From NCBI GenBank assembly GCA_043808285.1, contig JAZDFA010000012.1, positions 312 to 64,311 on the forward strand: a stretch of 64,000 nucleotides of DNA, written 5' to 3'. Position numbers and translations under genes: made by a program. Every line of letters begins with the position of its first letter. Within the stretch, counting starts at the first letter, position 1. This stretch comes from an archaeon. GTDB taxonomy: Archaea; Nanobdellota; Nanobdellia; Pacearchaeales; DTIR01. A model generated the notes under the pieces. That model was not told the DNA's origin, did no database searches, and saw only the letters and a program-made list of their open reading frames with translations. Positions 2 through 51,390 of this stretch are shown in pieces.

Positions 2-3000
2 CCAAACATAACTGAATCTGCAGTTAGCGTAACATATTTGGCAGGAAATGAAAGCAAGGTTAACAGAAGCTCTGGTATAAGCACACTAAGCATCAGAATA
101 AGAGATACAGAGAATAACACCTACTCAAATAACGTCAACACAACATTCTGGGTGACAACTCAAAATGGAAATTGGGACTCTGGCAATATGGTGAATACAA
201 ATATTTCAGGAACTGCTATTTACAACTTCACTCCTTCATGCTCTCCATATTACGAGGCTGGAGTGCAGAACTGGACAGGAGGTGTTAGTGATGCATGCTA
301 CCAGGATGTTAACTTGTCTGATTGGGTGAACACTACTGTTTATGGGATATTATCCACTTACTTAACACCAATTGTAATCCCCTCTTATTCCCATCCCCCA
401 ACAAAGGCAGAGTATCTAAGAGGAAGCAACATAACAATCATAGCAAATTTCACAGATGAGTGCAGCAATTTGAAAGATGTGGGCGTAGTAAATATTACTG
501 CAATTCAGAATAATACTGAAACAGAATTCCAATGCAAAAACATCCTTTCCCAATCAATAGGATATTACAACTGCACATTCAACACCTCTGCAAACCCCTC
601 AATAATGCCGACTAGATGGTATCATGTGAAGATAAATGGCACAAAGCAATATTACAATATGAGCTCATCTTTCAATCAGGATGCGTTCTGGATAGAAACC
701 AAGCCGATATTGAACAATTCAAATTACACTACATCTGATAATGTTAATATGGGGGGATGGGGGGAGACATGGATTTTCATGACTAATGTAACGAATGAAG
801 ATGAAGACCTGTTGGATGTAAGTCTCTGGCTGTTAAAAGAGGGACAAGGATGGCAGAACCCCTACTCTTTATTAATAACAGATAATTTCAGCACAGTAAC
901 CGCCATAGGACCTCTCGCATTCACAGCAGATGACAGGGGGAATTGGAGCTACATGTGGAATGTCACAGAGATAAATGGAACTGATGCTTATACTGGAGAG
1001 GCAGATGTATGGAATGACACAACTTCCATTTCAAACATAACTCTGATTAATGATGATGTTTCTATAGTCTGCAAGAGAGGATGCAATGGGGTGCTAAACA
1101 GAACAAATGCCTCAGACATTGTAACTTTCAAGGCAGAAGTAGACGATTCTGACAGGAATCAAGTAATTGCCACAGTAACGGATTCGGGGAGCATTTATGT
1201 TACTTCAAACGAAGATACAGAACTTTTAAATTCCTCCCAGTATCAATGGGTTACCGATATTTCTGAATTAGGAACTGACTCTGGAGGGTTCATACAGTGG
1301 GATTTCCCAACACTGACAAGATGCACATATTTAATAGGCCCTCAAAAATGGAGGGTAGAATTCATAGCAGACGGATGGAAGCCTACAAACTCATCATTCT
1401 TTAATGTAACACTAACGACGAACCCATTGACTGTTGCAATCGCCTCCACGAAATACAATTATAGTATAAGAAGAGGAGATGACCCAATCCCTTTCAGCGG
1501 GAATGTAAGCGATGATTGTGGGCTATTGACAAATGCATCGGTGCAATTCTCTGTCCCAGAACAAAATGCAAGATTCATAAATACAAGCAATAATGCATGG
1601 TATAACTATTCTGTGTATCCTCAAAATCATTCTTCGTGGAATTACGGAGTTCATAATCTTACAATCAATGCAAGCAAGAAATATTATAATGGTTCTGCAA
1701 CTGCATGGGAATATTCTTCTTTTAGGATATTAACAAACCCAAGGGCATACAATCCAACTGCATCAAGCAGGGCAACTGGAATCGGAGCATCAGATGGGGG
1801 ATGGGGAGAGGTTTGGACATTCAATGTAACAGTTGTTGACCTTGACCAGATAGAATCAGGATTAAATGAAGTTTTAAATATAACCCTATGGCTTAACACA
1901 AGCAACGGATGGAGAATTGCAAATTCAACAACTTGCATAGGAACATGCCAGACTCCTCAAGTAATGAGATTTGTGCAAACTAACGATTTCTCATGCAACG
2001 ATGTGTCAAGCCTGCAAGGCCCTATATTCTACCAGTTCAACGTGACAGATGCATACGGCTACAATAATGAGACCAATTCAACAATAAACTTGCAAAAAGA
2101 TTCTGTGTTCGTACAATTTGTTTCAGACCCATTGTCAATAAACAGGGAGTCTGGTGTAGGATTATTTAGCATGAGGGCAATGGATACTGATATAAGTGAT
2201 TCATGGCTGGGAAGCGGGGTAAGCACAAGATTCTGGTTCACTACAAATGGAGCATCATATGACGAATTATACTCAAATACTACAAATCTCTCTGGGAGCT
2301 CTATATACTCTTTTGATCCCGGATGTAGTATAAATGCAACAACCCAGAGATGGAAGGCGGGAACTTATAATGATGTATGCTATGAAAACAGAAACTTCAC
2401 AATACCATTTACCCAATATAGTTTTGATGTCTATGGAAACATAAGAGATTATCTTGTCTCTCCTGCCGCAAATCAGACTTATGCAGTCGGGGATTCAGTA
2501 AGTGTCAGGATGAATGCGACATCTGATTGTGGTTATGGTATCTCAAATTTGAGTGTAATTTGGATACAGGATACCAATCCGAACAACCAGACAGGAAATT
2601 GCAGCGCTACAATAAATGATGAAGGAGAGGGATATTACAATTGTACATGGGATACTTCATTCCACGTTGGAGGATGGTATGACCTGAGAATGCAGGCAAA
2701 CAAGAGCTATTACTATAGCAACTTAACTGTATGGAATGACTGGGTTTACTTAAACAACACAGCTCCAACAGCTGGAAATTTTTCAGTCACTCCTACTTTC
2801 GAAGGATGGGGCAAAACATATTCTTTCTATTCAGATGTTTATGATGCCCAGAGAGAGAATGTAACCTGCAAGATTTATGTGAGCACAAACAATCAGTCAA
2901 CATGGGCAGTAAAAAATCAGACAATCTTAAACACTTTAAGTGGGAATGGCAATGCTGTTTGCAATCTTACTGTATCTAATTTTGGATGCTCGGACATAGG

Positions 3001-6000
3001 AACAGACAATTACTTCAAGTTTGAATTGTCAGATGGAACTAATATTCTCAATACCACAATAAACGGCGGGCCAAATATAACCCGAGATGATGCTTATATA
3101 GAATATATCTCGGGGAATAACACTTTGGTTAACAGGGCAGGAATAAACACAACATTACTTGTTGCAAGAATTTATGATGTTGACAGAAACAATTTAACTG
3201 TCTCAGGAATAAATGGAACATTCTGGATAACAAGAGACTTGGTAAATTTCCAGACGCAACAGATAACCCAGACAAATAGCTCCGGTTATCTAAACTATTC
3301 TTTTGACCCCGGATGCTCTCCAAAATATGAGGTTGCAAAACAATATTGGTTTGCAGGAATAAATGATGCATGCTACACTCTAATGAACCTTTCAGTCAAT
3401 TACTCATTGAATATAACAGGAGACTTGGTAAGCGAGGTAGCTTATGTATACAATGACCAGGATCCATTTTCCCCTCCAATAAATGTAACAAAGGGAGAGC
3501 AGAATGTAACAATAGATTCTATAATAAAAGATGAATGCGGGACAGAGCAGGAAGGGGCTAATGTAATAATCTATTTAATGAATGTGTCAGGATACCAATA
3601 TCCTTGCGACCCAGTTGAATACCAGGGCTCTGGGATATATAGGTGCATGGAGAATACTAGCTACATGTCTGCCAAATGGTATTCTGTTATAATCAATGCG
3701 ACAAGGCCTTTCATGAACCCTCAGTATGTAGAGGAGAACAATATATTCTACATTCAGACAAGACCATTGCTAACTGACTTGCAGTGCCTAAATTGTCCTA
3801 GAGGGTGGGGAGAGACTTTCTCGTTCAATGTCACTATAAGCGATGAGGATGAGGATAATGTTACATTGGAATTGTTCGTGCAGAAGCCAAACAGCGGGGC
3901 ATGGGTGAAGAGAGAGGAGATAAATCTCATAGCCCCGATAGTTAACAGGCAGGTAACACTTAATTCCTCTGCAGGATTTTTTGAATGCCCCACAAATTTG
4001 GGCATTGGAGGATTCAGGTTTGATGCGACTGATTCAAGATTTCTTACAAGAAGCGAAGTAAATAATTTGACGGTAGAAAGAGATGACATAGAGATAATAC
4101 ATTCTTCTGGGAACAACGGGCTATGGTGGAGAAACGGGACACACACATTGCTGCTAAGCCTTCTTGTGAGAGACACAGACAGGGATTTATCCCTAGGGGC
4201 AGGGCAAGATGGCACATTCAGGGTTACTAAGAATGGAGCAGAAACATTTGATTCTGGAAAGACAGAATTTACGAATGAAAGCGGGTATCTTAATTACGAG
4301 TTTACAGAAGATTTCCTTCCAGAGCCAATATGCAATTATTCCCTTGGAGTACAGACATGGAATGCAGGGGTGAATGGAATATGCTACAAGGAGAAATACT
4401 CCAGTAATTATTCCATGACTAGAAAATCAGTGCTTAAACCAGTAATAATCATGCCTAATGGAGAAGGATACATCAGGGGGGGGAATATACCTTTAATAGG
4501 AAGGGTAGAGGACGAATGCTCCAACAGCACTTATGGGGTAGAGAATACTACTGTAATTTACAGGCTTGATTCAGGTTCTAACGTATACATCTGCACATTA
4601 GATACAAATAATGGATGGCAGGAAAATGGCGGTTCTTACAACTGCTCATGGAACTCTGCATCAAGGTCAACAGGATATTATAATCTGATGATGAATTCAA
4701 CAAAAGGATTTTATGAAGATAATTTCACATATAGGACTAATTCATTCCATTTAGGAAACATGCCTAAGTTATTTGATCCATCAGTTGACCATTCATCAGG
4801 GGGATGGGGAGAGACATATACCTTCTCAGTACTTGCCGCTGATGCAGATTTCCAATGGATTAATGTAAGCTTGTGGGGGAGCTATGACAACTCTACATGG
4901 TATATGCTGAATATAACTTCAGTAAGAGGAATCAACAGAACAGTAAATTTCCAGAATAGATTTTGGTGCGGGAACATGAGCACGAATGCAGATACTGGAA
5001 TAAAATACTTCAAATTCACAGTATATGACCCCTATAATTATTCAGATGAAACTATCCCTAAATCAATAAATCTGACATATGATGATGTTACCGCTTCTGT
5101 AACAACAAATACAACTTACAATGTAAGGAGAGTAGGGCAGTCAGCAACTTTGGAATTTAGAATAAGAGATACAGACATGACAGGAATTCCGTCCGGGAAT
5201 CGTTATGGAGAGTATCCTTCTGGTGCTTCAGGAAACATGTGGATTACCCAGAATACTAGCGATTATTCTTTTTATTACACATGCACATCAAATGGAGGAT
5301 ATTGCAACAGAACTTATGACCCGAGCTGCAACAGCACAGTTGGAATACAGAACTGGACAGGGGGGGTAATGGATTCATGCTATCTTCCAATAAACAGTTC
5401 AAGGACAAACCTGCAGGTTTTCGGGCAGCTTTATCCAATAATAACAAATCCTTTCAGTGGCAAAATAATAAACAGGAATACAACAACTTATTTCAATGCA
5501 ACAATAGTTGATGATTGTGATGCAGTAATCAGCCCAGCAGTTTCAAGGTGGTATAATGACACATTGAATTTCATTGCATTGGGAAATAATACTGCCTGGA
5601 ATGTATCTGCATTGTATGATTTGGGGGCAGAGATAATCAGGATAAATTCAACACAGCAGTATTATGACAACGGGACAAACAGCAGCTCAATATATGTTTA
5701 TGGCTGGGCTGAAGTGAGAAATATTATTCCATTAAATGGAACAAAGTTTTATTCAGGGTCTTATGTAGAATCTATATGCACAATAAGAGATGCAAATACT
5801 GAACAGCCAATCTCGGGATATTCTGTAAGCTTTTACAAGAATGACACTCTGCAGAACATTTCAATTACAGATTCAAACGGAAATGCAACATGGACTTGGT
5901 ATACTTTATCAGACCCAGATGGATTATACAATGTATCATGCAACATCTCCTCATCAATAGGCCTTTACTACAATGTGTCTTTAGCAGTAAATAGCACCAT

Positions 6001-9000
6001 AATAGAAATAGAGAGACCACTAAGAATAACAGAAATAAGCAAGGATAATTCAAACATCTTCAGGAATGATTCATTTAATCCTCACTATTCTAATTTGACA
6101 ATAAAGGTTGTAGAGGCAAGTTTGGGGGCATCACAGAACGCTAATGTAAGCTTTTACAACCAGACAGCAGGATATCTTGGATATTGCATTACAAACTCCA
6201 GAGGGAAATGCTCTTTCATATTCAATGCAACAGATGATGTCACCCCAGACATTTACACTCTGTACTTTAATGCAACAAAGACTGGCACAAAATCATCTTC
6301 AACAAATGTAACAACTGTCAAGGTGATGAGTGTCGCATACGGGAGTATAACAGAGCCCGTAAACGGTTCAGAATTCCCAAAGAACGATATCATTTCATTA
6401 TCGGTAGATGTTTGGGACGAAAACAACAATACATTCACAGCAACGGTAAAATGGTACAATGAAACAGCACAGGTTGCATCCGGCATGAGCACGATACTTG
6501 TTCTTAACAGCCAGAATACCGGATGGAGAAATATAACTTCATTGATAACAAGAAATTGCCTGAATGATTCATCGCAATTATGCTCCTCAACAGGAACTTC
6601 AGAAGTGTTCATATTGGTAAGAAGCCTTTCAGATGTAGGATTTATTTATCCACTTGCAAACAGCAATGTAACAATACTCCAGAAATTCAACGCAACCTGC
6701 AGGGTTTATGACGATTCAACATCCCAGGCAATTCCAAATTATCCTGTAAAGATGTGGTATACCCCAACAGGGGGAGCATACAATTATCTGGGAGAATTCT
6801 TTACAAATGGAAGTGGCGATGCAACATATGAATATTATCCATTAATCAAGGGAAATCTTACTTTCAAATGCAATATAACGGACAATCAAACATTGCAATA
6901 TGCAACAAACATATACGAATCTGAAAGCACATTCAACGTAAGGGACACATTGCCTCCTTTGATAAATTACACATTGATAGAGCCATATCAAAGAATAGAG
7001 GCTAATTACAACTATACAAACATAACAGCTTCGATAATAGATGAGATAGGAATAAATGCCGCATGGGCACAGATAAAACTTCCAAATGGAACACTTGCAA
7101 ATGTGACACTTGAAAAGTATCCTAATATCATAACATACAGGATAATCGAAAATGCTTCAGTAAGCACAAGTGCAGGATTCACATATATGGAAAACATAAG
7201 TGATTACGGAATAATGCATTACTTCAATATTACAATCTATAACTCCGGAAATGAAACATTCTATTTCAACTTGACTGTCAATGATATAGCGGTGGCATAC
7301 AATCAACCAGCTGTTAACGGAACAAACACGACTCTAAATGCAATTTACAATTCCTCATCATTTGGAGCGCCCGATAATTACACAATAAAAGTGGGGGTAA
7401 TGAATGCTTCAGGCTACAACCTGAACTTAAGCTATATATCCTTCATGAATTACAGAGTCAATGTAACTAGGTATGTCGGAAAGTATATACCTCCAATAGG
7501 GGGAACATACAATGTAACTGTGTTTGCACAGGACCTTATGCCTGAAGGAAACATAAACTCAATTAACGCAGGGCAGATATATGTATGGGGGACGAGCAGT
7601 TCAGGGCTTGCCAATATCCCCTCACAGCAGATAGCATCAGGAATAACACAAACAGGAAATTACAGTTTTAATCTGACATTAAATTTCAGCAATTTAGGAC
7701 CTGCGACTGCCTATTCTGTGAACATAACTGTTTTTGACAACTCGAATTACACAGTGTACAGCAGCAATCTTACAAACTGCGGGAATGTAAGTGCAAACTC
7801 TTCTTGCACTATGAAGCTGAACATAACATTAAACCCTGCCACTCCCCCTGTTGTGATAACTGTTTATTCATTTGCTGTATGGAGCAACGCAGATAAGACG
7901 AGCCAGAACGTGCAAAATCTTACTAATATTCTAGTTTCTGAAAACCCAGTTGTTGACATTCTTGAGAGTGATATAACAAACAATGCAACTCATGATGATA
8001 CTACTCTTGTAGGCAATATAACAATATTATCTCATGGAAATGCAGAGATAACAGATGTGGCACTGCAGACCCTCGGAGGCAATCTTGCATTAGATTGCCC
8101 ATTATGCAATGTCCAATTCATTCCCAATGAAACAGGATTATTGCTTGCAGGAGAGAATATTTCTTCAAATATTTACCTAACTGTCCCTGCTGGGCAGGCG
8201 CCGGGAGTTTACTGGAGCAAAATAAGGGTAACCACTTCAAATGCAGGTTATGATGAAATATTGCTCAACATAACCATTCCATTGAACAATACATGGATAA
8301 GAAGGCATAATTCAAATTTAGGAGTAATACTTGCTCCTTTGAATACTTCTGGAGGAGTAGGAACGATGCAGATTAAGAACCTAGGGAATGTGAGATTGAC
8401 TTTTAATCTGTATAGATCAGAGGCGGCTGCTCCTTTGATATCACTGCAGACACCAACATTTGACCTTCAAAAGCTTGTTGAAAGGAATGTAAGCATTAAT
8501 TTCTCTGTTGCAGCAGGAACAACACCAGGATTATATTATGGAAGAATCCTTTCAATGGTAAGAGATGAGAATACAAATACTGCATATCCCACAGATATCT
8601 CAAGCGGGCAGATAGCAGTCATAAATTTCACTCTTAATGTTACAGATATCCCTCCAACAATATCTGATGCAAATGTTACCCCCACAAGTTTTGAGGTAAT
8701 ATATGATACTGTGAATGTATCTGCAAATATAACTGACAATTTTGCTGTTGGCATTGCATGGATAAATGTCACAATGCCCAATGGAATGACTTACTCTGAA
8801 AGGATGAACAAGAGCGGAAATACATACTCTACAAATTACAACACAAGCATACCCGGGGTACATCAGGTTAGGATATGCGCTAATGACACGCAAGAATTAG
8901 AGGTGTGCGGCTCAATAATAAATGTAACTGCATCGGAGAATACAACTGTATTAGCATCCCCCAACTCAACAGTGATTACTTTAAGAAATATAAGCTTGTC

Positions 9001-12000
9001 GGATGGCCAGAATTTCTCAATCAGCATTGATGTAAACAATACAGGATATTCGAGGGCTTTTGGGGTAAACCTTACAATAGACAATATAAGCAACTGGTAT
9101 TCAGAGCCTTACTTCTTTGGCATAGGAACGTTGCTGAAACAGCAGTCTTACACCAATATAACATCAATATTCGTACCAGCAGGATTGTACCCTGGGAATT
9201 ACAGCATAAACTTCACAACTAACTGGACTAATCTAAATGGAATTAATGATGTCAACACCACGAATCTTACTGTAAGAGTATTATCTAATCCTTTATTGGA
9301 TGTGCTTGAGAACAGCATGAACATGACTGTTTATACTGGGGGATGGAACACACAGAACTTTACTTTATCTTCAATAGGAAATGACAATGCAACAAGTATC
9401 AATTTTTCATGCTCCTCTGGCGCAGTATGCAATAACTTTACAGTTGAATTCAATCCGATGAATCTTTCTTATCTTTCTGCAGGTGCTTGGGATTCAATAC
9501 GGGTGAATGTGAGCGTCCCAGTCAATTTCCCCACAGGTTCGTATTATGGGGTGATATCTGCGATTGCTGCAAGAAATGTTTTAACCTCTGTCCCAATACA
9601 TGTTGCTATTCCCGTGAATATATCCTGGGAACAAACACCTTTGATAATAACAAGAGAAGTAGTTGCAGGAAAGACAGGACCGTTTGGAGATGTGAAGATA
9701 ATCAATACAGGAAATGTTCCATTAATCGCAGAACTATTGACATACGGGAATGCATCTGCATATCTTGGTTTGAATGTTTCTTCCCCCTTAAGCATAGGGG
9801 CAGGCGAGACAAGTTTTATAGGAATATCATTTGATGCCCCAGCACCTTCAATGAAGACAAATTATATTGGCTACCTGGCAACAATAAACAATAGTGCGGT
9901 TATCTCCCAGCAAACAACAACATTAAACCTTACAGTGCATCCTTTCTTTGCAAATATAACTTCGCCGACAGAAGCCAAGCCAAAGATTAATGTTTCAGGA
10001 GGAGATGTAATAAATGCCTCTGTTAATATAACTTACAGGGGCGTTATACTCTCCGACAGTATAGTATTTAATGTAATGTTGCAGAACTCAACTTTCAGCA
10101 CCAATGCAAGCATTATCGCGGCGTCTTACTCTCTAGCAAACCGTTTATGGCTGGTAAATTTCACTGCCCCCAATCTTGCATCAGGGCATGCATATGATTT
10201 GAATATCACTGCAAACTACACCCTCCAAAAGATTGCATATTTTGATGTTGAAAACAGTTCAATAATCTACATAGACAATACACCTCCTTTTGTTGATATA
10301 GATGTGCCAACAGATGTTCCAGGAAACACAACTGCATTTATATCAATCAATGCAACTGATTCTGGAGGAATAAAGAATGTAACGGCAAATCTTACTGACC
10401 CTCAGAATGCAACATCTTCACTCATAGTGCTGAATTTCAGTTATAGAGATGGGAATATTTATGTTTATGATTTTGGATTCACAAACACTACACTTGTCGG
10501 AATATACAAGATAACTGCTAGAGCCTGCGATATATCAGGAAACTGCAATTTCTCAACTTCTCAATTCGGGGTGTTTCCAAGATTATGGTTTGTTGGAAGG
10601 ACAGTTAATGAAGAAGACCCATTAAAACCTGCAATAGTTGTCAACTTTGTATTCTATGAAGCTGGAACAAATACAGTGATATACAATTTCAGCTCAAATG
10701 CATTAGGGTATTACAACCAGTCTCTCCAAGTAAGAACTTACGACTTGGTATTCACACTGTTTAATGACACGATAAAAATGTTTAATGTTACCCTTGATTC
10801 TGACCTTTATAATCCAATTGTGTTTGGGAAGATTCCTCTTGCATTAATAGGAGATGGCTCAATAAAAGGCATAACTTACACAACAGTGATTAATTCAAGC
10901 CTTGGAAAAATTGAATTCTCATTGTCCCAATGCCTGATTTATGGAGAATGCGGTTCATTGACCGGATTAACAATAGATAATCTTGGGATATACACATGCA
11001 ATGGATGGGTAAGATATAATGGATGCAGGAACAGCACATGGCAGAGGGGTGGAGGAGTGTTTGAGAACGGCACAAAATCAATCTATTATTATTACGGAGA
11101 TAATTCCTCAATAGCAGGAACATGGACATTCTCTGCTGCAAAATATATCTGCGGGAACGGTGTTTGCGAAGAATTAACTGGAGAATCTACTGCTACATGC
11201 CCAAGAGATTGTCCTGGTGGCGGGGGAGCCGGAGCTGGAGGCGGAGCAGGTGGTGGTGGCGCAGGCGGCGGCGGTGGCGGGGGAGCTGAAGGCGGAGGCG
11301 GAGGCGGAGGAAAGAAAGGAGAAACTGGCCCAATACAAATCAATGTTCCAGTGATAGACATAACAATTTACCCGGGAGAGACAAAGATATTTGCAGTAGA
11401 AATAACAAACACCAAGGGAACTTCAATAGATGGAACATTGAGCGTTGAAGGACCTGTATGGAAAATAATTGAATTGCAGAAGAGCGAATTCGTGGTAGCA
11501 AACAAGATGACTGAGTCAATACAAGTAAAAGTAAGCCCAGATGCAAAGACACTGCCTGGAATATATACTGGAGATCTGATCATAGATGCGGGAGGAGAAA
11601 AGAGAAGAGTTCCTATAACTGTAGCTGTTGAAATATTGCAGGAGCCATTATTAGACGTAGTGATAAAAATGCTTACAAATAAGGTTAGGCCAGGTGATGA
11701 CCTGAAATTTGAAATTTCAGTAGTTAACATGGGAGGAACAACAACAGTTGAGGATGTTGTATTAAATTATTCATTAAGAAATCTTGAGTTTGAAAATATA
11801 ACCTTGTCATCAAGCGAGGAAACAATTGCAGTATCTGATGTTTCAACATTCAAGAAGACCATAAAGATTCCAACAAGCGCAATATCTGGAAAATATCTTG
11901 TTGATGTAAAGGCAAGATACTGGTATGCGAGGAAGCATGCTTCTGCATCAGAGTCATTTGATATTTATGTTGATGTGCCGCCTATGGCAATGCTAAAGAA

Positions 12001-13174
12001 ATTATTCAGCGCATGGATTACCTGGATAATTTTCTTCCTAGTTCTTCCATTGATATACTTTGGAATAAAACTTTATGGAAAATACAGGCTTGAAAGAATG
12101 AAGAAATCAAGATACATTATGCCTTCATTCGAGACACTGCCAAAAGATGGAGAGACCGCAATGGATTTGGGAAAAATAGCAGAGACAGACAAGAAGGCAT
12201 TCTTTGACATGGATGACTTAACTACTCACTTAATTGCAGCAGGAACTACTGGTTCAGGAAAGACAGTTTCAGCCATGGTATTGGCTGAGGAGATATTGAG
12301 AAAGAACAGGTCAGTTGTAGTATTCGACCCAACCGCACAGTGGACAGGATTCCTTGCTCCAAACAAAGACAAGAAGATGTTTGAGATGTACAAAAAGTTT
12401 GGATTAAAGAAAGAGGATACAAGGGCGTTTAAGGGAATGATACTAGATATAACCGACCCCAAGCAGGAAATAGATATAAGAGATTATCTCAAGCCTGGAG
12501 AGATAACTGTGTTTACATTGAACAGGCTTACAACAGAGCAATTCGATGTTGCTGTAAGAAACATAATAGGAGCAATATTCAAGCAGCATTGGGAGGAAAG
12601 CTCTGGATTGAAAGTATTGGTAGTGTTCGATGAAGTGCACAGACTGCTTGAGAAATACGGAGGAAAGGGGGGGTATACTGCACTTGAAAAGGCATGCAGA
12701 GAATTCAGAAAGTGGGGCATTGGAATTATGATGATATCCCAGATATTAGGAGATTTCAAAGATGCAGTCAAGGGTAACATATTAACTGAAATACAGCTGC
12801 ACACTAAAGGCGAAGAAGATATAGAGAGAGTAAGAAAGAAATACGGAGACTCTTATGCAGAGAGACTTACAAAGCAGCAGATTGGAGTAGGATTAATGCA
12901 AAATCCAAAATATAACGGTGGCAAGCCATGGTTTGTAAACTTCAGGCCTCTGCTTCACTCACCTCACAAGCTGTTCGAGGAAGAATTAGAAACATACAAG
13001 AAGCTTGGAGCAGAAATAGTTTCAATGAAGAAGAAGGTCAAGGACATGCAGGAGAAGAAAATAGAAACAAGAGACTTGGAGCTGGAACTCAAATTGGCAG
13101 AGGACAAGCTCAAAGTAGGCTCATTCAAGATGGTAGAGATTTACTTAGAGGGATTAAGAAGAAGATTCCAATAA
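2..13174 (+). CDS. giant surface protein (5'-partial), fused through one TM helix to a cytoplasmic HerA/DUF87-like P-loop ATPase
   Basis: The 13.1-kb ORF is uninterrupted and its frame stays open to base 2, so the true N-terminus lies upstream of the window. I count 9 N-x-S/T sequons in the first ~105 residues, with similar density throughout. It contains ~1-kb super-repeats and many CARDB/Ig-like signatures (for example IKNLGNVRLTF, IINTGNVPLIA). A 32-residue Gly/Ala hinge is followed by two beta-sandwich-like domains and the hydrophobic helix FSAWITWIIFFLVLPLIYFGIKLY. After that come DMDDLTTHLIAAGTTGSGKT (Walker A, 12242-12265) and VLVVFDEVH (Walker B, 12614-12640), then a C-terminal coiled coil. 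Confidence 0.9.
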   Translation, partial: PNITESAVSVTYLAGNESKVNRSSGISTLSIRIRDTENNTYSNNVNTTFWVTTQNGNWDSGNMVNTNISGTAIYNFTPSCSPYYEAGVQNWTGGVSDACYQDVNLSDWVNTTVYGILSTYLTPIVIPSYSHPPTKAEYLRGSNITIIANFTDECSNLKDVGVVNITAIQNNTETEFQCKNILSQSIGYYNCTFNTSANPSIMPTRWYHVKINGTKQYYNMSSSFNQDAFWIETKPILNNSNYTTSDNVNMGGWGETWIFMTNVTNEDEDLLDVSLWLLKEGQGWQNPYSLLITDNFSTVTAIGPLAFTADDRGNWSYMWNVTEINGTDAYTGEADVWNDTTSISNITLINDDVSIVCKRGCNGVLNRTNASDIVTFKAEVDDSDRNQVIATVTDSGSIYVTSNEDTELLNSSQYQWVTDISELGTDSGGFIQWDFPTLTRCTYLIGPQKWRVEFIADGWKPTNSSFFNVTLTTNPLTVAIASTKYNYSIRRGDDPIPFSGNVSDDCGLLTNASVQFSVPEQNARFINTSNNAWYNYSVYPQNHSSWNYGVHNLTINASKKYYNGSATAWEYSSFRILTNPRAYNPTASSRATGIGASDGGWGEVWTFNVTVVDLDQIESGLNEVLNITLWLNTSNGWRIANSTTCIGTCQTPQVMRFVQTNDFSCNDVSSLQGPIFYQFNVTDAYGYNNETNSTINLQKDSVFVQFVSDPLSINRESGVGLFSMRAMDTDISDSWLGSGVSTRFWFTTNGASYDELYSNTTNLSGSSIYSFDPGCSINATTQRWKAGTYNDVCYENRNFTIPFTQYSFDVYGNIRDYLVSPAANQTYAVGDSVSVRMNATSDCGYGISNLSVIWIQDTNPNNQTGNCSATINDEGEGYYNCTWDTSFHVGGWYDLRMQANKSYYYSNLTVWNDWVYLNNTAPTAGNFSVTPTFEGWGKTYSFYSDVYDAQRENVTCKIYVSTNNQSTWAVKNQTILNTLSGNGNAVCNLTVSNFGCSDIGTDNYFKFELSDGTNILNTTINGGPNITRDDAYIEYISGNNTLVNRAGINTTLLVARIYDVDRNNLTVSGINGTFWITRDLVNFQTQQITQTNSSGYLNYSFDPGCSPKYEVAKQYWFAGINDACYTLMNLSVNYSLNITGDLVSEVAYVYNDQDPFSPPINVTKGEQNVTIDSIIKDECGTEQEGANVIIYLMNVSGYQYPCDPVEYQGSGIYRCMENTSYMSAKWYSVIINATRPFMNPQYVEENNIFYIQTRPLLTDLQCLNCPRGWGETFSFNVTISDEDEDNVTLELFVQKPNSGAWVKREEINLIAPIVNRQVTLNSSAGFFECPTNLGIGGFRFDATDSRFLTRSEVNNLTVERDDIEIIHSSGNNGLWWRNGTHTLLLSLLVRDTDRDLSLGAGQDGTFRVTKNGAETFDSGKTEFTNESGYLNYEFTEDFLPEPICNYSLGVQTWNAGVNGICYKEKYSSNYSMTRKSVLKPVIIMPNGEGYIRGGNIPLIGRVEDECSNSTYGVENTTVIYRLDSGSNVYICTLDTNNGWQENGGSYNCSWNSASRSTGYYNLMMNSTKGFYEDNFTYRTNSFHLGNMPKLFDPSVDHSSGGWGETYTFSVLAADADFQWINVSLWGSYDNSTWYMLNITSVRGINRTVNFQNRFWCGNMSTNADTGIKYFKFTVYDPYNYSDETIPKSINLTYDDVTASVTTNTTYNVRRVGQSATLEFRIRDTDMTGIPSGNRYGEYPSGASGNMWITQNTSDYSFYYTCTSNGGYCNRTYDPSCNSTVGIQNWTGGVMDSCYLPINSSRTNLQVFGQLYPIITNPFSGKIINRNTTTYFNATIVDDCDAVISPAVSRWYNDTLNFIALGNNTAWNVSALYDLGAEIIRINSTQQYYDNGTNSSSIYVYGWAEVRNIIPLNGTKFYSGSYVESICTIRDANTEQPISGYSVSFYKNDTLQNISITDSNGNATWTWYTLSDPDGLYNVSCNISSSIGLYYNVSLAVNSTIIEIERPLRITEISKDNSNIFRNDSFNPHYSNLTIKVVEASLGASQNANVSFYNQTAGYLGYCITNSRGKCSFIFNATDDVTPDIYTLYFNATKTGTKSSSTNVTTVKVMSVAYGSITEPVNGSEFPKNDIISLSVDVWDENNNTFTATVKWYNETAQVASGMSTILVLNSQNTGWRNITSLITRNCLNDSSQLCSSTGTSEVFILVRSLSDVGFIYPLANSNVTILQKFNATCRVYDDSTSQAIPNYPVKMWYTPTGGAYNYLGEFFTNGSGDATYEYYPLIKGNLTFKCNITDNQTLQYATNIYESESTFNVRDTLPPLINYTLIEPYQRIEANYNYTNITASIIDEIGINAAWAQIKLPNGTLANVTLEKYPNIITYRIIENASVSTSAGFTYMENISDYGIMHYFNITIYNSGNETFYFNLTVNDIAVAYNQPAVNGTNTTLNAIYNSSSFGAPDNYTIKVGVMNASGYNLNLSYISFMNYRVNVTRYVGKYIPPIGGTYNVTVFAQDLMPEGNINSINAGQIYVWGTSSSGLANIPSQQIASGITQTGNYSFNLTLNFSNLGPATAYSVNITVFDNSNYTVYSSNLTNCGNVSANSSCTMKLNITLNPATPPVVITVYSFAVWSNADKTSQNVQNLTNILVSENPVVDILESDITNNATHDDTTLVGNITILSHGNAEITDVALQTLGGNLALDCPLCNVQFIPNETGLLLAGENISSNIYLTVPAGQAPGVYWSKIRVTTSNAGYDEILLNITIPLNNTWIRRHNSNLGVILAPLNTSGGVGTMQIKNLGNVRLTFNLYRSEAAAPLISLQTPTFDLQKLVERNVSINFSVAAGTTPGLYYGRILSMVRDENTNTAYPTDISSGQIAVINFTLNVTDIPPTISDANVTPTSFEVIYDTVNVSANITDNFAVGIAWINVTMPNGMTYSERMNKSGNTYSTNYNTSIPGVHQVRICANDTQELEVCGSIINVTASENTTVLASPNSTVITLRNISLSDGQNFSISIDVNNTGYSRAFGVNLTIDNISNWYSEPYFFGIGTLLKQQSYTNITSIFVPAGLYPGNYSINFTTNWTNLNGINDVNTTNLTVRVLSNPLLDVLENSMNMTVYTGGWNTQNFTLSSIGNDNATSINFSCSSGAVCNNFTVEFNPMNLSYLSAGAWDSIRVNVSVPVNFPTGSYYGVISAIAARNVLTSVPIHVAIPVNISWEQTPLIITREVVAGKTGPFGDVKIINTGNVPLIAELLTYGNASAYLGLNVSSPLSIGAGETSFIGISFDAPAPSMKTNYIGYLATINNSAVISQQTTTLNLTVHPFFANITSPTEAKPKINVSGGDVINASVNITYRGVILSDSIVFNVMLQNSTFSTNASIIAASYSLANRLWLVNFTAPNLASGHAYDLNITANYTLQKIAYFDVENSSIIYIDNTPPFVDIDVPTDVPGNTTAFISINATDSGGIKNVTANLTDPQNATSSLIVLNFSYRDGNIYVYDFGFTNTTLVGIYKITARACDISGNCNFSTSQFGVFPRLWFVGRTVNEEDPLKPAIVVNFVFYEAGTNTVIYNFSSNALGYYNQSLQVRTYDLVFTLFNDTIKMFNVTLDSDLYNPIVFGKIPLALIGDGSIKGITYTTVINSSLGKIEFSLSQCLIYGECGSLTGLTIDNLGIYTCNGWVRYNGCRNSTWQRGGGVFENGTKSIYYYYGDNSSIAGTWTFSAAKYICGNGVCEELTGESTATCPRDCPGGGGAGAGGGAGGGGAGGGGGGGAEGGGGGGGKKGETGPIQINVPVIDITIYPGETKIFAVEITNTKGTSIDGTLSVEGPVWKIIELQKSEFVVANKMTESIQVKVSPDAKTLPGIYTGDLIIDAGGEKRRVPITVAVEILQEPLLDVVIKMLTNKVRPGDDLKFEISVVNMGGTTTVEDVVLNYSLRNLEFENITLSSSEETIAVSDVSTFKKTIKIPTSAISGKYLVDVKARYWYARKHASASESFDIYVDVPPMAMLKKLFSAWITWIIFFLVLPLIYFGIKLYGKYRLERMKKSRYIMPSFETLPKDGETAMDLGKIAETDKKAFFDMDDLTTHLIAAGTTGSGKTVSAMVLAEEILRKNRSVVVFDPTAQWTGFLAPNKDKKMFEMYKKFGLKKEDTRAFKGMILDITDPKQEIDIRDYLKPGEITVFTLNRLTTEQFDVAVRNIIGAIFKQHWEESSGLKVLVVFDEVHRLLEKYGGKGGYTALEKACREFRKWGIGIMMISQILGDFKDAVKGNILTEIQLHTKGEEDIERVRKKYGDSYAERLTKQQIGVGLMQNPKYNGGKPWFVNFRPLLHSPHKLFEEELETYKKLGAEIVSMKKKVKDMQEKKIETRDLELELKLAEDKLKVGSFKMVEIYLEGLRRRFQ
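60..5420 (+). repeat. in-frame ~1-kb (~335 aa) super-repeats inside the giant ORF
   Basis: (G/R/E)GWG(E/K) codons start at 752, 1796, 2801, 3800 and 4799, giving spacings of 1044, 1005, 999 and 999 nt. Each unit also carries an R.RD.D...FW.T...Y.F.P.C...Q.W.(A/G)G...CY block. The units are diverged at the DNA level. Confidence 0.8.
11216..11311 (+). other. poly-Gly/Ala hinge (32 codons, GC-rich GGN tract) in the giant protein
   Basis: The translation is GGGGAGAGGGAGGGGAGGGGGGGAEGGGGGGG. It sits immediately before the membrane-proximal beta-sandwich domains. The antisense poly-Pro ORF at 11092..11361 is its shadow. Confidence 0.9.
12130..12960 (+). other. HerA/DUF87-like ATPase domain (cytoplasmic part of the giant protein)
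   Basis: It has Walker A GTTGSGKT, Walker B hhhhDE (VLVVFDEVH), and a downstream GIGIMMISQ segment. The ...L..H..I.G.TGSGKT context is typical of HerA/DUF87-type ATPases. It follows the only C-terminal TM helix. Confidence 0.65.
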
Positions 13175-13377: not shown

Positions 13378-13659
13378 CTATCTTTTGTAAACTTTATCAT
13401 GATGGTCAAAGTCTAGAAATTTAATTTTATTCTCTTCTTTGATAAAGCTGAAAACAAGAATAAAATGCCCTATATGAACTCTTTTTTTATCTTTCAAATC
13501 ATATCTGAGATTCTTGTAATGCTCAACATCTGAAGAGTTTATTATTTCTTCAATTTTCTTGAGTACCTGTTCATATAACTCCTTATCTTTTTTTGACAGT
13601 TTATTGAGGATTTTTTGCAAAGAAGGAATCACCTCATAAACATACATTTTAATCCTCAA
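13378..13659 (-). CDS. RelE/ParE-superfamily type II toxin (archaeal RelE-like)
   Basis: This 93-aa protein carries ...YKNLRYDLKDKKRVHIGHFILVFSF...FLDFDHHDKVY, a typical small RelE-like pattern. It overlaps the upstream antitoxin gene by 11 nt. Confidence 0.65.
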   Translation of the reverse strand: MRIKMYVYEVIPSLQKILNKLSKKDKELYEQVLKKIEEIINSSDVEHYKNLRYDLKDKKRVHIGHFILVFSFIKEENKIKFLDFDHHDKVYKR

Positions 13660-14274: not shown

Positions 14275-15792
14275 ATGGTAAAAAAGGTGGTACTTGTCAA
14301 TTATAATTCATATCCCACAACGTTAAGCTCTTTTCTTCCAGACAATGGATTAGCAGGGCTCGCTGCATGCCTCAAGAAAGAAGGGTATGACACAGTAATA
14401 CTTGATTATAACACCCCAGACATAATAAATAAGCTCTATTCTAAAGAACAATCAGAAATAGAAAGCAGGGAAGAAAGATATTGCAAAGAGATAGCAGATT
14501 ATATTACCTGTATTGATGACCTCTGTTTTGTAGGGTTCAAACTCTGGACAGGAAATGGCTTTAAGGGTTCTGTCAAGATTGCAGAGAATATAAAGAAAAG
14601 AGACAAAGCAATAAGGATTTTTGGAGGAGGCCCGCACGTCTCAACGTTCAAGGATGAGATATACAAATATACAGATGTTTTTGATGCGCTTGTCTATGAT
14701 GAAGGAGAGGAGCCAATAGTTGAACTTGGAAAATTTAGCAACGGGAAGATAACATTAGAGAATATCCCAAACATTATTTTTAGAAAAGAAAACAGGATAA
14801 TCACGACAGAAAGAAAAAAGTTATCAGGTCTTGAATGCATGCCATTTCCGGCATATGATCGGGAGACATATCCTTCAATAAACAAAAAGATAAAAATAAT
14901 AGTGAGCGAATGGGCACGGGGCTGTGTAAATGAATGCAATTTCTGCATTCATCCAAAGAAAAGCGGCAAGGGATACAGGTTAAAGAGCATAGAAAGGATA
15001 ATCTCTGAGCTAAAAAACTGCATTAATCAGGGAATAAGAACTTTTAAGAGCGGCGATTCTAACACTCCTTTGAAGCATGCAGAGAAAGTCGCATCAGCGA
15101 TAATAGAAAATTCCCTCGATATAGAATATGCCGGAATCGGTTCTGTGGGCAATATAAGCAGCATTGATTTGAATCTCTTGAAGAAAGCGGGATGGTACAG
15201 CATATTCTTCGGGATAGAATCAGGCAGTGAATATATCTTAAGAAAAGCAATGAACAAGGGGACAGATATCAAAGAGGCGAGAGATACAATAAAAAGAGTA
15301 AAGAATGCAGGAATAAATGCAGTTGCGAGTTTTATAATGCCTTCGCCTTATGAGAGTGAGGAAACAAAAAAGGAGACACTGGAATTTATTCTTGACACAA
15401 TGCCCTCAAGTGCACCAATTAATCTGCCTATGATAATACCTGGAACGGAATGGGCAAGCAACCCCCAGAAATTCGGAATAGAACTCGCAAAAGATTACGT
15501 TTACAAATCAATGTTCTTTAGCCCTACATTATTACTCCAGCCGATAAAATGGAATTTTATGGATTACAGGATTAACGGGAAGGATTTCTTTAAGATTGCA
15601 GAGGAATCAAACAATTTTGCAAAAGAGGTTGAAAGCCGGGGAATAACAACACAGGCAATAGATGACATTATGATAATGGCAGAACACTGCAATATGCCTG
15701 TAACGGAATTCAGGAATGAGATTATAAAACATCTTTCAACAGGCAATCATGAATCTATAGAGAAAATAGTAAATAGAATAAACAGCAGCTAA
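14275..15792 (+). CDS. B12-binding-domain radical SAM enzyme
   Basis: The CxxxCxxC cluster motif is present (GCVNECNFCIHP). The N-terminal Rossmann-like region (VVLVNYN...LAGLAACLKKEGYDTVILDYN) is typical of class B radical SAM proteins. Confidence 0.8.
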   Translation: MVKKVVLVNYNSYPTTLSSFLPDNGLAGLAACLKKEGYDTVILDYNTPDIINKLYSKEQSEIESREERYCKEIADYITCIDDLCFVGFKLWTGNGFKGSVKIAENIKKRDKAIRIFGGGPHVSTFKDEIYKYTDVFDALVYDEGEEPIVELGKFSNGKITLENIPNIIFRKENRIITTERKKLSGLECMPFPAYDRETYPSINKKIKIIVSEWARGCVNECNFCIHPKKSGKGYRLKSIERIISELKNCINQGIRTFKSGDSNTPLKHAEKVASAIIENSLDIEYAGIGSVGNISSIDLNLLKKAGWYSIFFGIESGSEYILRKAMNKGTDIKEARDTIKRVKNAGINAVASFIMPSPYESEETKKETLEFILDTMPSSAPINLPMIIPGTEWASNPQKFGIELAKDYVYKSMFFSPTLLLQPIKWNFMDYRINGKDFFKIAEESNNFAKEVESRGITTQAIDDIMIMAEHCNMPVTEFRNEIIKHLSTGNHESIEKIVNRINSS

Positions 15793-15793
15793 A

Positions 15794-16456
15794 ATGGACA
15801 TCTGGGACATTTATGCCAAGGCGTATGACAGGATAATGCCTTCTCTTTCATATTATAAGGAGCTACTTGGAAAGACAAGCAATGCATTGTCAGGATGCAA
15901 AAAGATTCTAGATGCAGGAACAGGCACAGGAATATTTGCAAGCGCACTTACCTCGGAAGAAAGAGAGATTTATGGCATAGACAGCAATGAGTCAATGCTT
16001 TCCTATGCAAAAAAGAAAATTAAATTGGGAGGTAATCTCAATTTTCTAAAGAGAGATATATGCAAAACAGATTTTGTTGAGGGCTTCTTTGATGGGGTAA
16101 TCTGCATAAATGTGATTTATTCCCTTGATGAGCCAGTTACTACACTGATAGAATTAAGGAGAGTGTTAAAAAAGGAAGGCATTTTTGTTGTTTCAGGACC
16201 AAAGAAAAATGTTGACAAAGGACTTCTGAGCAGGATATTCTACGGGGAAATAAAAAATAATCTGAATTTAGAAGAGATAAGAGATGAACTAAACGCGTTT
16301 GAGGAATGCAATAAAAAACTGCTTTCCGGACTTAAAAATACATACAGCAACAGAGAACTCGAGGAATTGCTTGTTGGAGAAGCAGGTTTTTCAAGGATTA
16401 TTATTTCAGATGAGGCTTTTGCAGGCCAGAATTATTTTATTGTTGCTATGAATTAA
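15794..16456 (+). CDS. class I SAM-dependent methyltransferase
   Basis: Motif I is ILDAGTGTGIFA. The gene starts 2 nt after the stop of the radical SAM gene. Confidence 0.8.
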   Translation: MDIWDIYAKAYDRIMPSLSYYKELLGKTSNALSGCKKILDAGTGTGIFASALTSEEREIYGIDSNESMLSYAKKKIKLGGNLNFLKRDICKTDFVEGFFDGVICINVIYSLDEPVTTLIELRRVLKKEGIFVVSGPKKNVDKGLLSRIFYGEIKNNLNLEEIRDELNAFEECNKKLLSGLKNTYSNRELEELLVGEAGFSRIIISDEAFAGQNYFIVAMN

Positions 16457-16474
16457 ATAAAAAAGAGGTGATAA

Positions 16475-17071
16475 ATGGGATTGGAATTTCATATAGCGAG
16501 AGCTATGAAAGACAAAGAAGAATCATTCAAGGTAAGGTATAAAGTATTTTGCGAGGAATGCTCTCTTATAGATAAAGAGAAGTTTGAAACAGGGATAGAA
16601 ACAGACAAGTATGACTTATCGGACAATACATTCCATTTTGTTGCATTCCATGAGGGAAAGGCAGTTGGAACAGTGCGGCTAATTATCTCTCCTTCTGATA
16701 TGAACGGCAGATACGGGTTTCCTGTAGAGGAAATTGTTGATTTATCTCACTACAAGAAGAATAATGTAAATGTTGCGGAAATATCAAGGTCATGCGCATT
16801 GCCGGAGTATAGGAAGAAAGTGATAATGATGAATCTATGGAAATGCACTTATCAGTTTTCCCGGAAGAATAATATCACCCATTTTTGCACATCTGCCCAT
16901 CCAGGCAAGGCAGAGATGTACGGCAAACTCGGCTTTTTCAAGATAGGGGAAGAAAAAAAATATTCTGCAGTAAGAAACAACCCTGCGCTGCCTTTGATGA
17001 TGATACTTGATAAGATACCAGAGCCATATAAGACATTTTTTGAGGAAGAAAGCAGAAATATCTTTGTATAG
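16475..17071 (+). CDS. GNAT-fold N-acyltransferase resembling N-acyl amino acid / autoinducer-synthase-like enzymes
   Basis: The motifs are FKVRYKVFCEE...ETDKYD....HFVAF.EGKAVGTVRLI....AEISR.....YR. A GGTG Shine-Dalgarno site precedes the ATG. Confidence 0.55.
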   Translation: MGLEFHIARAMKDKEESFKVRYKVFCEECSLIDKEKFETGIETDKYDLSDNTFHFVAFHEGKAVGTVRLIISPSDMNGRYGFPVEEIVDLSHYKKNNVNVAEISRSCALPEYRKKVIMMNLWKCTYQFSRKNNITHFCTSAHPGKAEMYGKLGFFKIGEEKKYSAVRNNPALPLMMILDKIPEPYKTFFEEESRNIFV

Positions 17072-17736: not shown

Positions 17737-18435
17737 TTACTTGCCTATGTTATGCACTATTAATCCATTTTTTCCTATCTCAAGGGGGTGAATATCTTCA
17801 TCGTTGTCTGTATTCCTCATCTTTCTTACAATCAAGCTTCGTGAGAACTCTCCACCCATTGACTCAAATATTATATGGATTATCCCATCGCATATAAACT
17901 CAGAGACGCTATCCTGTGAGAGCTGGGAGTCATTGGAGGTATGAGATATAAGGAGAGAAGTTATGCCCTTCATTTCCTTCAGAGAGGTTATGAAAGAGCA
18001 AATAAACCTTTTTACTGTAAACTCATTAAGCTCTTCTATTTTTATTGTTGGCGTGTTTACGTATAATGTTGAAAGAGAGTCAATGACAAGCCGCTTGATA
18101 CCATTCTCATTTATAATTTCAGTTATCTCGCGTATTGTGTTCTTGCTTATCTCACTTGGTGGAATGAAGATTATCTTTATCATGCTCTTTTTTTCAAGCT
18201 CTTTCAAGCCCCATCCAAATTGCGCTGCCTGGTCTTGCAGCTCTTCTATTGTCTGCTCGAAACTAATATACAGCCCTTTCTCATTGAATTTTTGGGAGCC
18301 ATTGAAAAGGTACTGCAGAGCAAATATTGTCTTTCCTGTTGCAGGAGTACCGCTAAGCAGAATAACAGAACCAGCAGGAAAACCATCTGCTATAAGTTCA
18401 TCAAATCCCTTAATCCCAGTCTTTACTCTGTCCAT
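17737..18435 (-). CDS. KaiC-like (RecA-superfamily) single-domain ATPase
   Basis: GIKGFDELIADGFPAGSVILLSGTPATGKTIFALQYL contains Walker A. LVIDSLS is the Walker B-like segment. Confidence 0.85.
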   Translation of the reverse strand: MDRVKTGIKGFDELIADGFPAGSVILLSGTPATGKTIFALQYLFNGSQKFNEKGLYISFEQTIEELQDQAAQFGWGLKELEKKSMIKIIFIPPSEISKNTIREITEIINENGIKRLVIDSLSTLYVNTPTIKIEELNEFTVKRFICSFITSLKEMKGITSLLISHTSNDSQLSQDSVSEFICDGIIHIIFESMGGEFSRSLIVRKMRNTDNDEDIHPLEIGKNGLIVHNIGK

Positions 18436-36130: not shown

Positions 36131-36159
36131 ACTTAATAATCAAAAAAACAGAGGTGAAA

Positions 36160-37893: not shown

Positions 37894-37900
37894 ACATCAA

Positions 37901-51389: not shown

Positions 51390-51390
51390 T

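Follow-up and report, generated by a model that had tools for sequence, protein, structure and literature searches.

A probable SPEARE-type giant surface protein of an archaeon carries a predicted HerA-clade ATPase in its conserved membrane anchor module

Introduction

DPANN archaea take material from host cells, on whose physical contact they depend, and the SPEARE-type giant proteins are the leading candidates for the apparatus of this contact. The name SPEARE was given to giant nanohaloarchaeal proteins that are mostly extracytoplasmic and have a transmembrane (TM) helix near the C-terminus followed by a conserved cytoplasmic region, which Hamm et al. (2019; PMC6642349) took for a type III restriction enzyme. 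Here we describe a giant open reading frame (ORF) at the beginning of a 64,000-nt stretch of archaeal contig JAZDFA010000012.1 (assembly GCA_043808285.1, positions 312 to 64,311; this whole stretch is called the window). Judged from its sequence, the product very probably belongs to the SPEARE-type giant surface proteins of DPANN archaea, and its cytoplasmic domain is predicted to be an ATPase of the HerA clade.

Described SPEARE proteins include NAR1_1133 of Ca. Nanohaloarchaeum antarcticus (5,998 amino acids, aa), a protein of Ca. Nanopetramus SG9 (8,553 aa), SVXNc_0300 of Ca. Nanohalococcus occultus (9,409 aa) and BNXNv_0298 (8,880 aa) (PMC6642349, PMC10266531). SPEARE protein production was shown by proteomics, the ecto and cytoplasmic parts were found in different size fractions, suggesting processing, and SPEARE-like sequences were noted in Woesearchaeota, Aenigmarchaeota, Micrarchaeota and Altiarchaeales (Hamm et al., 2019; PMC6642349). 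Laminin-G, serine-protease and toxin-like parts of the ectodomain were listed in the same work (PMC6642349) and later disputed by Reva et al. (2023; PMC10266531). Reva et al. described a Sec signal, an immunoglobulin (Ig)-like array, a TM helix, a cytosolic 'VirB4/TraG-like' ATPase and a coiled coil, with a second ATPase gene downstream and no endonuclease domain, and proposed a 'straw' resembling a type IV secretion system (T4SS) (PMC10266531). Later papers repeat this view without functional tests.

The sole enzymatic domain of the SPEARE giants has therefore been given inconsistent labels, namely restriction enzyme in 2019 and VirB4/TraG in 2023. FtsK, HerA, VirB4, VirD4 and TraB are rings that move DNA or protein. 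VirD4/TrwB, FtsK/SpoIIIE and Streptomyces TraB are membrane-tethered ring ATPases of the FtsK-HerA superfamily, which pump DNA or other substrates through membranes at cell-cell junctions. The crenarchaeal system for DNA import (Ced) includes the membrane-anchored ATPases CedD and CedB, both of the HerA clade (PMC11868833).

A first-pass annotation, made from the sequence alone, had considered the architecture of the giant protein as undescribed. This claim has to be withdrawn, since the architecture was published under the name SPEARE in 2019 and again, as a TM helix with an ATPase and a coiled coil, in 2023. The giant fusion itself is genuine and widespread in DPANN archaea, and the window adds one member. 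What is added to the literature is the HerA-clade motor, the anchor module of about 650 aa as the conserved unit, and the co-conserved partner genes.

Results

The giant ORF encodes a glycosylatable ectodomain and a cytoplasmic ATPase

The giant ORF lies on the forward strand at 2-13174. It consists of 4,390 sense codons followed by a stop codon at 13172-13174, and it is still open at the 5' edge of the window, with its 5' end outside. Given the base composition of the window, the probability of such a stop-free run is about 1e-141. The codon count confirms the single unbroken ORF reported by the first-pass annotation. The product is read as a type I membrane glycoprotein with a cytoplasmic ATPase.

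The part N-terminal to the TM helix has at least 3,999 residues. The distal ectodomain (2-5755, residues 1-1918) is very rich in N-x-S/T sequons and consists of five to six divergent super-repeats of about 335 aa. The super-repeats were found by BLASTP of chunks against the whole protein, while the whole-protein self-BLAST gave the identity match alone. They are mutually 24–34% identical (E down to 7e-32), and each carries a GWG[EK] motif (residues 252, 600, 935, 1268 and 1601). The proximal array (5756-11149, residues 1919-3716) is also rich in sequons, has weaker internal repeats and is only weakly similar to the ectodomains of other giants. Pfam Big_7 and NPCBM_assoc matches were found in the ORF. 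The ectodomain is a heavily N-glycosylatable beta-sandwich array of at least 3,700 aa, which projects from the cell.

The protein contains 243 sequons, 242 of them N-terminal to the TM helix and one C-terminal. Upstream of the helix the density is 6.07 per 100 aa, compared with 2.06 expected from the composition, which bears out the sequon-rich extracellular array that had been noticed before. The complete homologous giants have an N-terminal signal peptide and a single TM helix about 390 residues from the C-terminus. The sequon distribution, the basic residues after the helix (positive-inside rule) and the signal peptides of the complete homologs together support the topology predicted at first, with the stalk outside and the P-loop domain inside the cell.

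The last 650 residues or so form a conserved anchor module

The ectodomain array is followed by an anchor module of about 650 aa, which is responsible for the membrane attachment. It comprises a Cys motif, a Gly hinge, two beta-sandwiches, a TM helix, a cytoplasmic ATPase and a helical tail. The module starts with the Cys motif CGNGVCEELTGESTATCPRDC (11150-11212, forward strand; A1 consensus CGxxxCxxGENxxNCPxDC). In the short paralogs (sequences P0029, P0101, P0042 and P0080) this motif stands directly after the signal peptide.

The last 674 residues were modelled by AlphaFold2 with 46 homologs, and the mean confidence (predicted local distance difference test, pLDDT) was 87.4. From its N-terminal side, the model has a disordered hinge and two beta-sandwiches, then a long TM helix and a RecA-like alpha/beta core, and finally three helices at the C-terminus. 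The flexible Gly/Ala hinge (11216-11311, residues 3739-3770, pLDDT below 50) has exactly the 32 residues that the first-pass annotation had counted. The two membrane-proximal beta-sandwiches, also expected from the sequence, are both present in the model at 11330-11965 (residues 3777-3876 and 3884-3988). Pfam NPCBM_assoc matches residues 3896-3973 in the second sandwich, and Foldseek matched these sandwiches to the tandem Ig-like proteins RbmA and WxLIP. The single TM helix, placed at about 12010-12080 in the first reading, was located at 11999-12082 (residues 4000-4027). It is the sole strongly hydrophobic segment, and the K/R-rich sequence YRLERMKKSRY follows on its C-terminal, cytoplasmic side.

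Past the Gly hinge, only 2 sequons were found in 229 residues (11312-11998, residues 3771-3999), compared with about 6 per 100 aa upstream. Because the sequons are almost lost after the hinge, the membrane-proximal sandwiches may be shielded or packed in a complex.

The fusion recurs across DPANN archaea

The homologs listed by a first search all had 385-702 aa and came from Aenigmatarchaeota, Woesearchaeota and Nanohaloarchaeota. They have two forms, which are either a TM helix with the ATPase, or a signal peptide with the motif CGxxxCxxGE..C..DC, two sandwiches, a TM helix and the ATPase. Because nothing longer than 702 aa was listed, the fusion to a giant ectodomain was considered as unusual, and this was overturned by the genomic context and by a search of cluster representatives. 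Four homologs of the long form (P0101, P0042, P0029 and P0080) lie directly downstream of giants of 9,407, 8,354, 15,808 and 5,061+1,677 aa, and these giants end in the same module, which is 34–49% identical to that of the window.

Loci were scanned with one genome per species. At least 569 loci were found, and the best 80, all from metagenome-assembled genomes (MAGs) of DPANN archaea, were analysed. The ATPase-bearing frame was open to the edge of the examined locus DNA in 71 of these 80 loci, and it reached at least 3,000 aa in 47. The closest related MAGs are labelled Aenigmatarchaeota, Undinarchaeota or Altiarchaeota. In the exhaustive search of cluster representatives, 356 matches were obtained at E <= 1e-30 and the best 150 were measured. 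Among these 150, 108 are longer than 1,000 aa, 60 longer than 2,000 aa and 21 longer than 4,000 aa, with a maximum of 7,878 aa. In 99 of the 150, the end of the ATPase match is separated from the C-terminus by at most 120 residues, and C-terminal tails of more than 200 residues, up to 733, were found in 27. The first-pass annotation had left it to a homolog search whether the ATPase is usually fused or stands alone. In most of the best 150 representatives the module ends giants of 1,000-7,878 aa.

An assembly chimera or a frameshift could also join two genes into one frame. In Woesearchaeota and Nanohaloarchaeota a separate module gene of about 650 aa follows the giant with a 4-nt overlap, and a lost stop codon there could mimic a fusion. 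However, the upstream giants in those loci already end in a complete module. A single module copy is present in the window, where no second copy was found by tblastn, and no second copy was found in the 80 Aenigmatarchaeota-type loci either. In addition, the fused layout was found in most of the 80 independent assemblies and most of the best 150 representatives. Because the fusion recurs in dozens of independent assemblies, the fusion noted at first is genuine and the probability of a chimera is close to nil.

The module is also found with a short or no N-terminal extension. Some versions, which have a short extension or consist of the TM helix and the ATPase only, lack the giant array (P0015, P0018 and a 627-aa form in locus L090). 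The ectodomains attached to the module thus range from none to more than 15,000 aa, and the conserved unit is the anchor module of about 650 aa. The last 650 residues or so of the window ORF are a complete family member in themselves. Therefore, the giant array is a variable N-terminal add-on to a conserved membrane ATPase.

The short ATPase paralog adjacent to the giant was found in Woesearchaeota and Nanohaloarchaeota loci and is specific to these clades, not universal. It has about 625-700 aa and consists of a signal peptide and the anchor module, and its gene either overlaps the end of the giant gene by 4 nt or starts at most 5 nt behind it (loci L001-L004 and L087-L089, at locus positions of about 10001-12100). 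Its position directly after the giant suggests mixed ATPase rings of giant and short subunits.

The giant ORF very probably belongs to the SPEARE family

The window module is 37% identical over 637 aa (E 4e-136) to that of P0178, an acidic giant of 7,878 aa, which sits in front of a protein named nanohaloarchaeal by NCBI. The link to SPEARE proteins by sequence was made through P0117 and P0178, and NAR1_1133 and SVXNc_0300 were compared by their published description. Locus L030, labelled Nanohalarchaeota, was tried as another bridge to the named SPEARE proteins and was rejected, as it gave mainly Aenigmarchaeota matches. The Pfam ResIII match on the window ATPase (E 5.1e-8) is the same match that stands behind the restriction-enzyme label of 2019. 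Together with the published layout, the module identity and the ResIII match indicate with high confidence that the window ORF encodes a new member of the SPEARE family.

The window ORF and the described SPEARE proteins share a giant, mostly extracellular array of adhesion-type beta-sandwiches and, near the C-terminus, a single TM helix, which is followed by a conserved cytoplasmic P-loop domain with a coiled coil at the end. A coiled-coil partner gene is also common to the window and the nanohaloarchaeal loci. In contrast, the window comes from a non-halophilic, low-GC archaeon, and its ectodomain repeats are extremely rich in sequons and unrelated in sequence to those of the described proteins. 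The window also differs in having no short ATPase paralog adjacent to the giant gene and in its partner genes, which are displaced by 22 kb.

The ATPase is predicted to be of the HerA clade

The ATPase core, RecA-like with an alpha/beta fold, was located at 12158-12949 (forward strand, residues 4053-4316). Both motifs given in the first-pass annotation were found, Walker A GTTGSGKT at 12242-12265 and Walker B VLVVFDEVH at 12614-12640. They are followed by the CREFRKWG motif with a putative Arg finger (12695-12718) and by the SQ sensor (in MISQI, within 12731-12745). Across 46 homologs, no variation was seen in the Walker A lysine, in the D-E of Walker B, in the RE-F-RK-W-G motif or in the SQ sensor. 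With these catalytic residues invariant, the ATPase looks catalytically competent. The C-terminal region (12977-13168, residues 4326-4389) was first read as a terminal coiled coil, and it appears in the model as three coiled-coil-like helices (module-model residues 610-635, 641-655 and 659-673, pLDDT above 90), which are conserved in the family.

The HerA/DUF87-type assignment proposed at first agrees with several searches. Pfam DUF87, the HerA central domain, matched with 40.1 bits (cut-off 23.2) and HerA_C with 30.4 bits (cut-off 22). The top NCBIfam matches were CedD (52.3 bits, E 3.7e-14, cut-off 600) and crenarchaeal HerA (HerA_Thermprot, 41.8 bits, cut-off 800), both of which are far under their equivalog cut-offs. 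In the PDB, the significant ATPase matches obtained with phmmer and with the family profile were of HerA type alone (4d2i, HerA-NurA, anti-phage HerAs and YjgR; 6.5e-11 to 3.8e-6), among them all seven significant ATPase matches of the profile search. The best Foldseek match was the HerA of S. solfataricus, 4d2i (E 3.4e-12). Consistently, the sequence and the predicted fold place the ATPase in the HerA clade of the FtsK-HerA superfamily, and this label fits better than the published labels of restriction enzyme and VirB4/TraG.

According to Hamm et al. (2019; PMC6642349), the cytoplasmic domain is a helicase or nuclease resembling a type III restriction enzyme, which degrades imported host DNA. 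The Pfam ResIII and DEAD matches on which such a reading can rely were reproduced here. However, these matches are short, they cover the Walker A region only, as do those of T4SS-DNA_transf, TrwB and FtsK, and they are confined to the generic P-loop core. The fold and the motifs are HerA-like rather than SF2-like. No nuclease domain was detected by Pfam or NCBIfam, and none was found by Reva et al. (2023; PMC10266531). The restriction-enzyme reading is thus largely refuted already, and we regard it as highly improbable.

The T4SS reading of Reva et al. (2023; PMC10266531), in which the giant carries a secretion ATPase like VirB4/TraG and acts as a 'straw' injecting effectors into the host, was also compared with these results. 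Pfam T4SS-DNA_transf and TrwB_AAD_bind are above their cut-offs, only over about 50 residues around Walker A, NCBIfam gave weak matches to TraD, TraC and VirB4, and cytoplasmic bridges were reported in a nanohaloarchaeon-host pair. In contrast, the VirB4 N-terminal domain PF03135 was not detected and AAA_10 reached 20.3 bits (cut-off 27.5). In the PDB profile search no VirB4 chain appeared at E <= 10, and DotL (E 0.039) and FtsK (E 0.059) were not among the significant matches. VirB4, VirD4 and FtsK are also absent from the Foldseek top 50. In the conserved neighbourhood, counted in the 73 loci with enough downstream DNA, no VirB6, VirB3, VirB8, CedA, TedA or pilin genes were found. The giant as a part of a T4SS is unlikely on this evidence.

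The closest solved structures and sequences are HerA (4d2i, HerA-NurA) and the anti-phage HerAs. They share with the window ATPase the RecA-like core, the H-x4-G-x-TGSGK[ST] context of Walker A, the hhhh[DE]E-x-H context of Walker B, RE-x-RK-x-G and SQ. Unlike the soluble HerA, the window ATPase is anchored in the membrane and has no N-terminal HAS barrel. In the model, the first core strand (module residue 337) starts only some 17 residues after the TM helix ends (module residue 319), which leaves no place for the barrel. Partner genes for NurA, Mre11, Rad50, Sir2 or a nuclease were found neither in the window nor in the conserved neighbourhood, and PADLOC gave HerA and mad8 matches in the ATPase core only, with no defence-system context. 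Therefore, the window ATPase is not a bona fide HerA.

CedD and CedB resemble the window protein in having a TM helix followed by a HerA/VirB4-like ATPase and in acting at archaeal cell-cell contacts. However, the Ced proteins have a cytoplasmic domain like the VirB4 N-terminal domain and no large ectodomain, and the window model leaves no room for an N-terminal domain of this kind. CedA and CedB partners were found neither near the giant gene nor in the conserved neighbourhood. VirD4/TrwB, FtsK/SpoIIIE and TraB are alike in passing directly from an N-terminal TM segment to the nucleotide-binding domain. Their similarity to the window ATPase is significant at Walker A only, and they differ in having at least two TM helices per protomer, an all-alpha or gamma domain and no giant ectodomain. 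For FtsK, PF01580 scored 20.7 bits (cut-off 24) over the Walker A region only, and the window protein has a single TM helix. The motor is thus without the accessory domains of HerA, VirB4 and CedD.

The anchor module travels with partner genes

The main partner of the ATPase gene is a cytoplasmic coiled-coil protein, rich in K and E. In the window it is encoded at 36154-37893 (forward strand, 579 aa, 100% identical to MFH1249219.1). In 68 of the 73 loci, a homolog of 390-700 aa, also K/E-rich, is the next same-strand gene after the ATPase-bearing gene. The homologs are up to 44% identical to the window protein (E 1.7e-84), and they share a conserved core of about 260 aa with the motifs IGELRxM, KIKSFENL and Y.D..KVE.IFSELN. 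In nanohaloarchaeal loci, too, the partner gene comes after the ATPase genes (E 4.9e-47 and 1.9e-60). These results indicate that a specific cytoplasmic coiled-coil protein accompanies the anchor module across DPANN phyla. In the Pfam and PDB profile searches no relative of this protein was found, only generic coiled-coil noise, and AlphaFold2 predicted it as all-helical with low confidence (pLDDT 59).

The second partner is a sequon-rich surface protein of 1,953 aa (37853-43714, forward strand, probable true start ATG at about 37901). It has a signal peptide, poly-Gly, NPCBM_assoc sandwiches, an extracellular coiled coil, a TM helix and a short cytoplasmic tail. In 44 of the 73 loci, full-length homologs (31–45% identity) lie 1.5-3 kb downstream of the giant ATPase gene. 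The third, a protein of 291 aa (35255-36130, forward strand), combines a signal peptide with one beta-sandwich, a coiled coil and a TM helix. In the closest relatives (L007 and three other loci), its homolog comes immediately after the giant gene. In this window the three partner genes cluster at 35.2-43.7 kb, about 22 kb from the giant gene. Other recurrent neighbours in the 73 loci are a MinD/ParA-like ATPase and small unknown proteins.

The purine skew of the window is extreme at 36000-38000 (AT skew 0.41, GC skew 0.29) because the K/E-rich coiled-coil gene lies there. In nanohaloarchaeal loci, the coiled-coil partner is followed by a conserved protein of 108 aa, which has a zinc ribbon and, at its C-terminus, a TM helix (L087, 13283-13609; L090, 14231-14557).

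Possible function of the ATPase

As a whole, the data are probably best explained by a SPEARE-type member, whose ATPase may form a ring at a cell contact and may move a polymer. The functions suggested in the first-pass annotation, which are extrusion of the stalk, mechanical signalling and translocation of a substrate, are speculative. Like its HerA and FtsK relatives, the ATPase would form a ring under the membrane. The ring would bundle several glycosylated stalks at the contact site with another cell, the host, and the ATPase, together with the coiled-coil partner, would use ATP to move a polymer across or at the cell contact. The translocation step is drawn from the analogy with these relatives, and we propose it only tentatively, as the most likely of the roles considered. 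Because the relatives are HerA, CedD/CedB, FtsK and TraB, DNA would be the most likely substrate, and protein is possible.

Several points weigh against this explanation. One TM helix per protomer cannot alone form a DNA-sized channel, and no VirB6/CedA-like channel protein or nuclease is conserved near the family in the 73 loci. The window has no adjacent short ATPase paralog of the kind found in Woesearchaeota and Nanohaloarchaeota loci. Laminin-G, protease and toxin-like domains gave no Pfam match at E <= 0.01 in the visible 4,390 aa, with the N-terminal part of the protein lying outside the window.

The same channel argument favours a different role, in which the ATPase serves the giant itself. 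It would cluster the stalks or anchor them to a coiled-coil scaffold, act in assembly or turnover, extract the protein from the membrane, or generate force for retraction. The tight co-conservation with the long cytoplasmic coiled-coil protein (68 of 73 loci) and the single TM helix per protomer, with no channel component conserved nearby, are in line with this role, and so is the separation of the SPEARE ecto and cytoplasmic parts into different size fractions (PMC6642349). In contrast, the versions without the giant array described above (P0015, P0018 and the form in L090) suggest that the role of the ATPase is independent of the giant stalk. A role directed to the giant itself is the main rival of polymer translocation, ahead of the T4SS reading, and is rather unlikely on balance.

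The polymer-moving reading can be extended to a DPANN-wide cell-contact machine, not defined before, which would be neither a T4SS nor Ced and would consist of the ectodomain-TM-ATPase protein, the coiled-coil partner and the surface protein of about 1,950 aa. A ring of ATPases under a bundle of giant stalks would pump host DNA or another polymer into the symbiont, and the coiled-coil protein would act as cytoplasmic stator or adaptor. This extension is speculative, and we consider it doubtful in its full form. The motor class, the anchor module and the partner identity provide concrete constructs and partners for biochemistry and cryo-electron tomography in cultivated nanohaloarchaea.

Other genes in the window

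Directly after the giant gene, genes for a B12-binding radical S-adenosylmethionine (SAM) enzyme, a SAM methyltransferase and a FeeM-like N-acyl amino acid synthase of the GNAT family are found at 14275-17071 on the forward strand, which may form a small biosynthetic cassette. The interval between the giant gene and the partner genes contains radical-SAM, methyltransferase, GNAT, KaiC, V4R and PAS/HAMP/histidine-kinase genes and a gene for a sequon-rich surface protein of 1,374 aa (29666-33787, reverse strand). The C-terminal design of this protein is that of the 1,953-aa protein and includes no ATPase; it has poly-Gly, an NPCBM_assoc sandwich, an extracellular coiled coil, a TM helix and a cytoplasmic coiled-coil tail.

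Six genes for KaiC-like or DUF7504 ATPases of the RecA superfamily were found in the 64 kb, four on the reverse strand before and after the partner cluster (17740-18435, 27973-28479, 59427-60149 and 60154-60840), one at 33808-34671 (reverse) and one at 49037-49588 (forward). Two of the six adjoin genes for sequon-rich surface proteins, which are the 1,374-aa protein and a protein of 1,197 aa (45398-48991, forward strand).

The window gave no match in scans for Rfam families and tRNAs. A small ORF (13381-13659, reverse strand), located in the gap that follows the giant gene, has a weak ParE-toxin-like match (E 3.3e-4), which is under the Pfam cut-off. A type IV pilus-like archaeal cluster lies at 50418-53690 on the reverse strand, 37 kb from the giant gene. 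It encodes one T2SSE ATPase together with two T2SSF membrane proteins, after which come unannotated ORFs. A cluster similar to it is also present near the short homolog with a TM helix and the ATPase in locus L006.

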